The translations under genes and the position numbers were made by a program. A DNA stretch of 64,000 nt from Escherichia phage VEc74: sequence record MT932213.1. One strand, given 5' to 3'. Positions 1,527 through 3,472 of this stretch are shown here, piece by piece (position 1 is the stretch's first letter; every line of letters starts with the position of its first letter). Below the pieces are notes generated by a model that saw nothing but the letters and a program-made list of their open reading frames with translations, ran no database searches and was not told where the DNA came from.

Positions 1527-1659
1527 TGTTTTGTGAAAAAATTTTTAAAAGTTTTAGGGAATTCTAGGGGCAGGGAGGGGCAATTAAAAGATAGGATAAT
1601 ATATTATAAAGGATAGAAACTAAATGATGCCTAGAGATGTCTGGAAAGGCCTAGATACC

Positions 1660-1687
1660 AAAAAGCCCCAACCTTTCGGTCGGGGCT
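1660..1687 (-). terminator. rho-independent terminator closing the tRNA/small RNA transcription unit
   Basis: Minus strand reads AGCCCCGACCGAAAGGTTGGGGCT followed by TTTTT. Confidence 0.7.
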
Positions 1688-1738
1688 AAGCCTTGCGGCA
1701 ACCTTGTCGGGGTTCCACCTGCTAAGGCAAGTGTTTGT

Positions 1739-1830
1739 ACGAAACGCCGGGATTCGAACCCGGTTATTAAGTAGTTGACGCTACTCAATATTTTTAAAAG
1801 GCCATATCTCGACCATATCCGAACGTTCCG
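1739..1830 (-). ncRNA. tRNA-like element with non-canonical D and anticodon arms (possible degenerate tRNA or small stable RNA)
   Basis: Canonical T-arm CCGGG-TTCGAAT-CCCGG and a 7-bp acceptor pairing (CGGAACG/CGTTTCG with one G-U), but the internal 58 nt do not fold as standard D and anticodon arms. Confidence 0.3.
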
Positions 1831-2003
1831 TCAAAAACGCTACTCGGCTTACGGCAAAGATATTTCCTCGAATCGATAATTCGGTGCGCCGTTTCTGCTG
1901 TGATATAAGGGGACATTAACAAAACATAAAGATTTATTAATGCCAGTCCTTAAACAGGGAACATCAGTCCGACGACTTGCCGGTAGCGACCCGGCTTCTT
2001 GTC

Positions 2004-2079
2004 TGGTCGAGGCAGTAGGGATCGAACCTACGACCCAGGACTTAGAAGGTCCTTGCTCTTCCTTCTGAGCTATGCCTCG
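2004..2079 (-). tRNA. tRNA-Arg (anticodon TCT)
   Basis: Hand-folded cloverleaf: acceptor CGAGGCA/TGCCTCG, D-stem GCTC/GAGC, anticodon loop CTTCTAA, T-arm GTAGG-TTCGATC-CCTAC, CCA encoded. Confidence 0.85.
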
Positions 2080-2764: not shown

Positions 2765-3373
2765 TTATTTATTACGTGAAAAAGACTGTTCTATCAATTC
2801 TGGACACTTTCGTTCTATCCATTTTCTAGCTTTTTGTGGGCTTATACCTATTATTTTAGCAGCTTTACTAACCCATCCAAATTTAGAATAATCGATTTTA
2901 ACTAATTCTTCGTAAATTTCATCAGTTAAAATCTTTTCATTAATATTTACCAGTAAATGATATAATTTATTATCATTAGCAATTTTAATGAATCTTTTAT
3001 AGTTTCCGCCTTTACTTAAGCCTAATGAAGTAATTGCAGATGATATAGTAGCCGAATTTAATAGTGCGTTTAAAATTTCTTCATCACTAACATTATAACG
3101 CTTTTTATTATTTTTAATATTTTTACCAGCAAAAGTATCAGTTTGCGAATGGCAGTTTGGACATAATAATCTTAAATTTGATTTAAGATGATTTTTGTTA
3201 TTTCCATCAATATGGTCTAATTGCAGAACAATATGCTTATTTTGCCATTTTGAAATTTTACAAATTGCACACTCATATGGAAAAATATTTTCTTTTATTA
3301 TTTTGTCTTTCAGCTTTCCTGTACTAAAATTTGGATGTTTTCCTTCAAAAATTTCAGCTAATTTAGTATCCAT
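2765..3373 (-). CDS. HNH-family homing endonuclease, about 202 aa
   Basis: Motif LQLDHIDGNNKNHLKSNLRLLCPNCH (His-Asn-His with CxxC) plus upstream CxxC (YECAICK); stop codon 7 nt from the 5' end of tRNA-Leu; start trimmed from the TTG of ORF 2765..3397 to ATG (MDTKL). Confidence 0.75.
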   Translation of the reverse strand: MDTKLAEIFEGKHPNFSTGKLKDKIIKENIFPYECAICKISKWQNKHIVLQLDHIDGNNKNHLKSNLRLLCPNCHSQTDTFAGKNIKNNKKRYNVSDEEILNALLNSATISSAITSLGLSKGGNYKRFIKIANDNKLYHLLVNINEKILTDEIYEELVKIDYSKFGWVSKAAKIIGISPQKARKWIERKCPELIEQSFSRNK

Positions 3374-3472
3374 AATATGATTCCCAATTATTAACAAAGG
3401 CTCTCAAATAAGAACCCTTGATGATAGAGGGTATTAATCAGTGCGGTATGAGTTAATAATAACAAATAATTC

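Follow-up and report, generated by a model that had tools for sequence, protein, structure and literature searches.

Orthologues of the T4 stable RNAs rnaD and rnaC at the 3′ end of the tRNA operon of Escherichia phage VEc74, with predicted folds supported by comparison across phages

We have examined the 265 nucleotides (nt) lying directly downstream of the transfer RNA (tRNA)-Arg gene, on the minus strand, in a 64,000-nt stretch (the window) of the T4-like phage (Tequatrovirus) Escherichia phage VEc74, record MT932213.1. Sequence comparison makes it virtually certain that this interval, which closes a tRNA operon on its 3′ side, encodes two distinct stable non-coding RNAs, the orthologues of T4 rnaD and rnaC; the pair are genes already known from T4, and no new element. 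rnaC is predicted to be tRNA-shaped, with a seven base-pair (bp) acceptor-type stem formed from both ends of the molecule, a canonical T arm and a four-way junction, and the predicted rnaD fold is not tRNA-like, being composed of a 5′ hairpin, a long irregular stem, an invariant purine-rich internal loop and an apical hairpin. Taken together, the T4 identity, the gene boundaries, the covariation-backed folds, the tRNA outline of rnaC and its absence from rnaD form a description in which we have high confidence.

A blastn comparison of window positions 1640–2010 with 50,697 phage records matched 801 of them, nearly all T4-like phages of enterobacteria, the closest being phage vB_EcoM_NBG2 (99.5% identity across the entire query). 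The T4 (NC_000866.4) features beneath the match are tRNA-Arg, rnaD ('small, stable RNA; species 2 RNA') and rnaC ('species 1 RNA'). rnaD is followed by rnaC between tRNA-Arg and the operon terminator, on the strand of the tRNA cluster, as in T4. An earlier reading of the DNA made from the letters alone, which we refer to as the original prediction, raised the possibility of one or two small stable RNAs like species 1 and 2 of T4, and the base-for-base alignment of the interval with T4 rnaD and rnaC, in the same order and context, bears this out; the division that it proposed, into a tRNA-like element of 92 nt and 170 further nt, has to be replaced by the following units:

1883–2002, minus strand: rnaD (species 2 RNA) orthologue, 120 nt, identical to the T4 misc_RNA rnaD in 102 of 121 alignment columns
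1877–1882, minus strand: A/U-rich spacer GAAUUA, 6 nt, the gap between the two annotated T4 RNAs
1738–1876, minus strand: rnaC (species 1 RNA) orthologue, 139 nt, identical to T4 rnaC at 138 of 139 positions over its full length

The rnaD gene starts at 2002, 2 nt past the last tRNA-Arg base, with G2003 between, and the spacer GAAUUA is a presumed zone of endonucleolytic cleavage by an enzyme that we infer. The rnaC orthologue scores 161 bits with a covariance model (R1, see below) and is present in a single copy in the window. Species 1 RNA was reportedly sequenced by Paddock and Abelson in the 1970s; it was an early in-vitro substrate of RNase III, and one of its precursors served as a substrate of RNase E. 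A 2022 omics study confirmed the T4 RNAs by northern blot, with a probe for RNAC, and lists them among late RNAs 'of yet unknown functions' (PMC9697503).

No credible open reading frame (ORF) is present in the interval, as originally predicted; there are only TTG-start frames of 34–45 amino acids. We therefore assign a negligible probability to the possibility that the interval encodes small proteins, for which the automated annotations that overlap the region in many GenBank records might be cited: apart from the poor frames, insertions and deletions among homologues are not multiples of three (rnaC varies from 139 to 143 nt and rnaD from 115 to 122 nt), and the substitutions in stems are compensatory. 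We note that many T4-like GenBank records label the rnaC/rnaD region 'hypothetical protein', with one record naming an 'Early E3 16 kDa glycoprotein' and another a 'head vertex protein'; protein annotations across rnaC and rnaD are likely to be artefacts laid over non-coding RNA genes.

Searches for known RNAs gave little in the interval. At gathering thresholds, Rfam found only the nine tRNAs of the cluster and nothing in the interval, so that the covariance search which the original prediction had proposed as a check calls no conventional tRNA there. With permissive thresholds there was only noise in 1738–2003, the best match being to the tRNA-Sec model (17 bits, relative to a gathering score of 47; E = 1.5), and this weak match is carried by the rnaC T arm. 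ARAGORN at default settings reported no tRNA in the window interval, in rnaC, or in rnaC from which the long hairpin described below had been removed; at relaxed settings it gave only degenerate calls, including one tRNA at rnaC positions 46–140.

The rnaC fold was assessed with model R1, built from 16 sequences and used to align 21 homologues, 20 of them distinct, from nine genera (Tequatro-, Dhaka-, Gapriver-, Karam-, Kagamiyama-, Moon-, Teguna-, Gelderland- and Marfavirus). Numbering the RNA such that position 1 is window position 1876, its parts are:

1869–1875, minus strand: 5′ strand of the acceptor-type stem, positions 2–8, CGAUUCG, pairing with 1746–1740
1799–1868, minus strand: long hairpin of 70 nt in the place of the D arm, positions 9–78, beginning with a three-pair helix, 9–11/76–78
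1829–1834, minus strand: loop 1, UUGACG, positions 43–48, apical loop of the long hairpin and kissing partner of 1780–1775
positions 79–86: A-rich linker
1765–1790, minus strand: hairpin 2 in the anticodon-arm position, positions 87–112, with a 10-bp stem and the 6-nt loop CGUCAA (1780–1775)
1747–1763, minus strand: T arm CCGGG-UUCGAAU-CCCGG, positions 114–130, matching the T arm of the Rfam tRNA-Sec model
1740–1746, minus strand: 3′ strand of the acceptor-type stem, positions 131–137, CGUUUCG, followed by U1739 and A1738

The predicted minimum free energy of rnaC is -50.2 kcal/mol (z = -4.56), and single-sequence folding of every homologue yields the same architecture. Among the 20 distinct sequences standard pairs occupy 91.5% of the cells, compared with 38–47% when the partners are slid by 1–3 columns, and changes on both sides are seen at 32 of the 53 pairs, against a mean of 18.7 in shuffles; none of 500 shuffles attains the observed values. 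In the acceptor-type stem, A4-U135 is replaced by G-C in 13 of the 20 sequences, and the two U.U mismatches of the T4-type stem become U-A and C-G in Yersinia phage TG1, which has a perfect stem. The long hairpin (helices 3–5) has 19 of 22 pairs changed on both sides, with 91–95% of cells paired, and even in Gelderlandvirus, Marfavirus and some Moonvirus and Karamvirus phages, in which its stem cannot be aligned, the same hairpin and loop are kept. In hairpin 2 eight of the ten pairs are changed on both sides, and the T arm, the perfect example of which had already been spotted in the original prediction (1763–1747, minus strand), is 100% paired with two covarying pairs.

The apical loop of the long hairpin (UUGACG, positions 43–48) and the loop of hairpin 2 (CGUCAA, positions 97–102) are fully complementary in all 20 distinct sequences, and twice they change in concert, to UUGAUG/CAUCAA in TG1 and to UUGGCG/CGCCAA in the Marfavirus group; both variants came from blastn and not from patterns in which the loops were fixed. 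Because this helix is absent from the alignment model, the kissing contact provides an independent test of the fold. The energies of the kissing duplexes range from -7.5 to -9.4 kcal/mol, with -7.5 kcal/mol for UUGACG/CGUCAA. Since all six bases of the loop in the anticodon position would pair with the apical loop of the long hairpin, rnaC is predicted to have no free anticodon and to be incapable of decoding.

The acceptor stem of the original prediction was a different one, between ACGGAAC (1831–1825) and GUUUCGU (1745–1739). These segments are indeed complementary in the window, but the pairing (rnaC 46–52/132–138) finds no support across the 20 distinct homologues: it has zero double changes, is unpaired at the fourth pair in 11 of the 20, scores below shuffles, and clashes with the covarying apical stem and the kissing loop. 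What the 3′ strand pairs with consistently is the 5′ terminus of the RNA, 1875–1869 with 1746–1740. The direct repeat GATATGG that was also pointed out does exist in two copies (1819–1813 and 1808–1802, minus strand), but with a 4-nt spacer (TCGA) rather than one of seven; both copies form part of the 3′ side of the long hairpin. We do not regard it as a functional repeat, as the copies, only 4 nt apart, pair with different 5′ segments and the duplication is not preserved in other genera.

No other element of the region is as conserved as rnaC, whose 138 of 139 positions identical to T4 compare with 38 of 76 for tRNA-Arg. rnaC matches 747 phage records, 417 at 99% identity or above and 263 at 95–99%, such that it is at least 95% identical in 680 of the 747, while the adjoining rnaD and tRNA-Arg diverge. 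This constraint bears on the proposal that rnaC is the remnant of a tRNA gene interrupted by an insertion, with a transcript that continues to be made and processed but has no function itself. The canonical T arm, the acceptor-type stem, the location in tRNA arrays, the degenerate tRNA proposed by ARAGORN at relaxed settings (rnaC 46–140) and the dispensability of the tRNA region in laboratory hosts (PMC2330249) would all be compatible with such a relic; it is nonetheless very improbable, given the near-identity to T4 and across the 680 records, the maintenance of the 'inserted' hairpin and of the loop-loop contact by compensatory changes in nine genera, and the lack of covariation in the pseudo-tRNA pairing, both that of relaxed ARAGORN and that of the original prediction. 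Disruption of a tRNA by an insertion, which the latter had offered as one possibility, thus survives only as a possible evolutionary origin, as the 'insertion' itself is conserved and covarying.

We favor the reading of rnaC as a maintained RNA of tRNA-like outline, and its 3′ flank fits with descent from a tRNA-like ancestor, the conserved sequence being U-N-C-A-A, with U-ACA in the T4 type and U-CCA in Marfavirus. We note that in Marfavirus-like Klebsiella phages (four contigs) rnaC is followed by U-CCA, which corresponds to a discriminator plus a genuine CCA; from the sequence, their rnaC might end in CCA.

rnaC also has distant homologues in phages of the genera Karamvirus, Kagamiyamavirus, Moonvirus, Tegunavirus, Gelderlandvirus and Marfavirus, the hosts of which are Enterobacter, Klebsiella, Cronobacter, Citrobacter, Salmonella and Yersinia. 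Most of these genomes have rnaC within the tRNA array with no rnaD adjoining, 4–8 nt from tRNA-Trp, tRNA-Phe or tRNA-Gly and with the same spacing as the tRNAs themselves; in one example the order is tRNA-Trp, 4–6 nt, rnaC, 5 nt and tRNA-Gly. In Marfavirus and in Citrobacter phage NM4.3, rnaC is flanked at least partly by annotated ORFs and not by tRNA genes. The converse arrangement is seen in the Dhakavirus phages JS98 and CLB_P2, which keep rnaD, the trailer and the terminator and in which rnaC is absent; the deletion in JS98 is precise, with rnaD joined straight to the conserved trailer and terminator (1509–1725 of the JS98 stretch). WG01, also a Dhakavirus, has both. Because JS98 and CLB_P2 keep rnaD without rnaC, and rnaC elsewhere is mostly without rnaD, we conclude that the two are independent modules.

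These distributions are pertinent to the view that both RNAs work in cis alone, being structured 3′ modules whose nuclease entry sites or exonuclease blocks direct or shield the processing of the tRNA operon transcript. The position in Tequatrovirus, at the 3′ end of the operon beside a structured trailer and terminator and with A/U-rich spacers, would suit such a role. We consider it unlikely, however, because in six other genera rnaC is found inside or beside the tRNA array and not ahead of a T4-type trailer and terminator, mostly with no rnaD adjoining; JS98 and CLB_P2 retain rnaD and the trailer without rnaC; each of the two RNAs builds up as a discrete species at a late stage of infection by T4 (PMC9697503); and a single-nucleotide polymorphism (SNP) in the rnaD of phage BW-1, discussed below, is in the apical hairpin and distant from any processing junction.

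Pattern scans for distant rnaC relatives covered IMG/VR, the JGI/ENA metagenomes and 185,579 bacterial and archaeal genomes (GTDB), and found true homologues only on contigs resembling T4-like or Marfavirus phages. Otherwise they returned mostly chance tRNA-containing matches, and two hits in bacterial metagenome-assembled genomes failed model R1. Four of the chance hits in IMG/VR share another conserved arrangement, TTGATGAAAATA[A/T]TAA[C/G] ... ACTAACATCAA ... GGTTCGAATCC, and these contigs score only about 15 bits with the rnaC model; the arrangement may represent a further structured RNA whose 3′ end resembles a tRNA.

rnaD matches 734 records, with identities ranging from 100% to less than 80%. 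Its fold was examined in 15 distinct sequences by RNAalifold and pair counts, and 97.6% of cells are paired, as opposed to 31–52% in the slid controls, with six pairs that have changes on both sides. In rnaD numbering, the elements are:

1979–1995, minus strand: P1 hairpin GCCGG-GUCGCUA-CCGGC, positions 8–12/20–24
positions 27–33/112–119: P2, closing helix
between helices: internal loop, GACUGA opposite GAAA, invariant
positions 40–43/104–107: P3, in which U40-A107 is replaced by A-U in three sequences
beyond P3: P4, then the variable apical hairpin

P1 is the hairpin CCGGGTCGCTACCGG of the original prediction, which is present at 1994–1980 and extends to GCCGG/CCGGC at 1995–1979; it is invariant in the 15 homologues, and its closing pair covaries between A-U and G-C. 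The central hairpin, in contrast to its invariant flanks, exists as at least four mutually unalignable alleles (the window/T6, T4, T2 and JS98/SP18 types), so that the sequence of the apical hairpin has been swapped wholesale between close relatives with its pairing retained. Every allele folds to a common outline, and the variable segment is almost wholly base-paired. Phage NBG2 has exactly the allele of the window, and RB3 and RB6 have alleles that match it at 99% identity. The invariant internal loop is likely, to judge from its sequence, to be a protein-binding site or a site of tertiary contact. We considered by inspection only whether it could be a kink-turn or box C/D motif, as UGAUG lies opposite CAGA, and rejected this since the geometry is not right: the GA is set apart from P2 by A110 and A111, and four bases are unpaired on the bulged strand where a 3-nt bulge would be expected. 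Folding and covariation across related phages, suggested in the original prediction as a further check, give conserved folds for both RNAs, and it is very likely that these comparison-supported folds are correct.

A connection between the rnaD fold and host range comes from a published adaptation experiment. Three lines of phage BW-1 adapted to the host ECOR34 shared a single SNP, a change of T to C at 164264, with virulence climbing from 0.17 to 0.98; in the paper the SNP is placed in rnaD and termed 'regulatory', with no structural conclusion drawn (PMC12685909). Position 164264 of OR125554.1 is a T, corresponding on the RNA strand to A76 of a T2-type rnaD allele, and BW-1 has CACAG...CUAUG where T2 and its relatives have CACAG...CUGUG. 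As deduced from the published SNP and the deposited sequence, A76G restores the apical-stem C-G pair of the T2-type alleles; the predicted minimum free energy changes from -25.9 to -31.0 kcal/mol, and the fold regains the family consensus. This suggests that the structure of the apical hairpin may matter for infecting a particular host.

The same data can be set against a different idea, that rnaD and perhaps rnaC are regulatory small RNAs that base-pair with host or phage mRNAs, with the variable hairpin of rnaD as the specificity determinant. The single-stranded 5′ leader of rnaD and the presence of a segment that differs between close relatives would accord with this, as would the word 'regulatory' used by the authors of the BW-1 study (PMC12685909). 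We think it distinctly unlikely, though, as in each allele nearly the whole of the variable segment is base-paired, the adaptive SNP strengthens pairing and does not alter exposed sequence, and a 2010 review knew of no functionally characterised trans-acting regulatory T4 RNA (PMC3014915). All four alternatives are less consistent with the evidence than the reading that we favor, that of two structured RNAs released from the tRNA operon, because of the constraint on rnaC, the varied positions in which it is found, the paired state of the variable rnaD segment, and the patterns of insertion, deletion and substitution.

As regards processing of these two RNAs, we infer from the tRNA-like stem and T arm of rnaC, its tRNA-type spacing in other genera and the A/U-rich spacers that release would be carried out by the host tRNA-maturation machinery. 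Host tRNA-maturation enzymes would cut both RNAs from the operon transcript, with RNase P cleaving at the rnaC acceptor stem (a plausible step), endonucleases cleaving within the A/U-rich spacers, and exonucleases removing the overhangs up to the terminal helices. We consider this route somewhat more likely than not.

Proposals for function are more tentative. rnaC could act in trans as a non-decoding tRNA mimic, occupying a protein that recognises the acceptor/T-arm 'elbow' of tRNAs; such a decoy would titrate a host factor that recognises tRNA, such as a defence nuclease directed against tRNAs or an enzyme that processes or modifies them. For rnaD, the conserved core and the structured apical hairpin could serve to engage a factor specific to the host, a role suggested by the BW-1 SNP, which repairs the hairpin and unlocks ECOR34. 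Decoy or host-interaction functions of this type are possible, although we would not expect them to prove right; the more specific scenario, in which both are counter-defence or host-interaction RNAs, rnaC as a decoy with masked anticodon and rnaD with a hairpin caught in an arms race with a strain-specific factor, is doubtful.

Several points weigh against our overall interpretation. The gene boundaries and transcript ends are transferred from the T4 annotation by pairwise alignment; the alignment on which nested pairs were counted had been fitted to the model, a procedure that favors it; and the kissing loop has only two independent events in its support. The mature 3′ end of T4 rnaC is annotated as ...GUA rather than ...CCA, so that T4 rnaC is no obvious substrate for aminoacylation or EF-Tu. 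In rnaD, BW-1 has a U.U at the sole covarying pair of P3, and the SNP mapping assumes that the coordinates of the paper are those of OR125554.1, with which the base (T) and the RNA range are consistent. In laboratory hosts the tRNA region of T4 is described as dispensable (PMC2330249). All the sources that we located give the functions of rnaC and rnaD as unknown, namely the 2010 review, for the biological roles of RNAC and RNAD, the 2022 study and the BW-1 paper (PMC3014915, PMC9697503, PMC12685909), and our literature search found no publication assigning a function to either.

The two RNAs are framed by the following features:

2004–2079, minus strand: tRNA-Arg (UCU), the final tRNA of the cluster, called by ARAGORN and scoring 65.8 bits with the Rfam tRNA model
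1688–1737, minus strand: structured 3′ trailer, 50 nt, including the hairpin CACUUGC-CUUA-GCAGGUG (fold z = -3.71)
1659–1687, minus strand: intrinsic terminator of the tRNA/rnaD/rnaC operon, found by terminator scan, with a 10-bp stem containing 7 G-C pairs, a GAAA loop and a TTTTT run

Both the adjoining tRNA-Arg and the strong terminator (1687–1664, with the T run extending to 1659) had been recognised in the original prediction, and the terminator is annotated as such in phages NBG2 and e11/2. Trailer and terminator together are identical to T4 at 94 of 98 positions, and the trailer is retained in JS98 despite the loss of rnaC; a processing signal or an alternative pairing with the terminator are possible roles for it. 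The trailer also carries a duplicated CCCCGAC motif, and its 5′ approximately 40 nt are nearly invariant among relatives, including phages without rnaC. Upstream, ARAGORN and Rfam identify nine tRNA genes on the minus strand from 2758 to 2004 (Leu, Gly, Pro, Ser, Thr, Met, Tyr, Asn and Arg). The tRNA-Arg is a T2L/RB3-type isoacceptor, and its 38 of 76 identities by pairwise alignment are with the T4 tRNA-Arg of the same anticodon; the Met, Tyr, Asn and Arg tRNAs constitute a cluster of the segB-less T2L/RB1/RB3 type, which is replaced through SegB homing in crosses with T4 (PMC2330249). Pfam gave no match for the neighbouring ORFs, and PHROGs named one of them: a 210-amino acid ORF (window 2765–3397, minus strand) without a Pfam hit that matches PHROG 14736, an HNH endonuclease (E = 6e-124). 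It stops 7 nt before tRNA-Leu, and the tRNA-Gln that precedes tRNA-Leu in T4 and NBG2 is missing from the window; because the HNH ORF adjoins tRNA-Leu and tRNA-Gln is missing, a homing endonuclease gene apparently heads the tRNA cluster.

rnaC and rnaD have been known for about 50 years, since the 1970s, and no Rfam family claims either RNA. What is added here is a fold of rnaC that covariation supports and that includes a loop-loop contact amenable to testing, the separation of rnaC and rnaD into independent modules with different distributions, and the tying of a published host-adaptation SNP to a repaired rnaD base pair, which makes BW-1 on ECOR34 an assayable phenotype for rnaD where previously there was none.

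Comparison with known systems places rnaC close to tRNAs in outline and distinct from them in detail. It shares with canonical tRNA (RF00005) the 7-bp terminal stem, the T arm with its UUCGAAU loop, the four-way junction, and the placement and spacing in tRNA arrays. It differs in having a 70-nt hairpin instead of a D arm, in the arm at the anticodon position, which has a 10-bp stem and a 6-nt loop paired to another loop in place of a 5-bp stem and a free 7-nt loop, and in that no CCA is encoded in the T4 type; Rfam and default ARAGORN both miss it. The tRNA-like domain of transfer-messenger RNA (tmRNA), the bacterial YrlA/Y RNAs and the tRNA-like structures of plant viruses likewise keep acceptor and T-arm features in a non-decoding RNA, features that in such mimics are recognised by tRNA-processing and tRNA-binding proteins. 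rnaC has no sequence or model similarity to these families, none of which scores above noise in Rfam, and to our knowledge a kissing-loop architecture like that of rnaC is not a feature of any of them.

The closest comparison is with T4 itself. VEc74 rnaC is the same gene as T4 rnaC (T4s001), on the same strand and with the same neighbours, rnaD upstream and the trailer and terminator downstream, and it differs by a single substitution, C65 in the window for a U in T4; the tRNA set further upstream is different, VEc74 having the segB-less Met-Tyr-Asn-Arg arrangement. VEc74 rnaD follows directly after tRNA-Arg as does T4 rnaD (T4s002), with an identical 5′ hairpin, closing helix and internal loop, and differs in that its central hairpin is of another allele, with an overall identity of about 85%.

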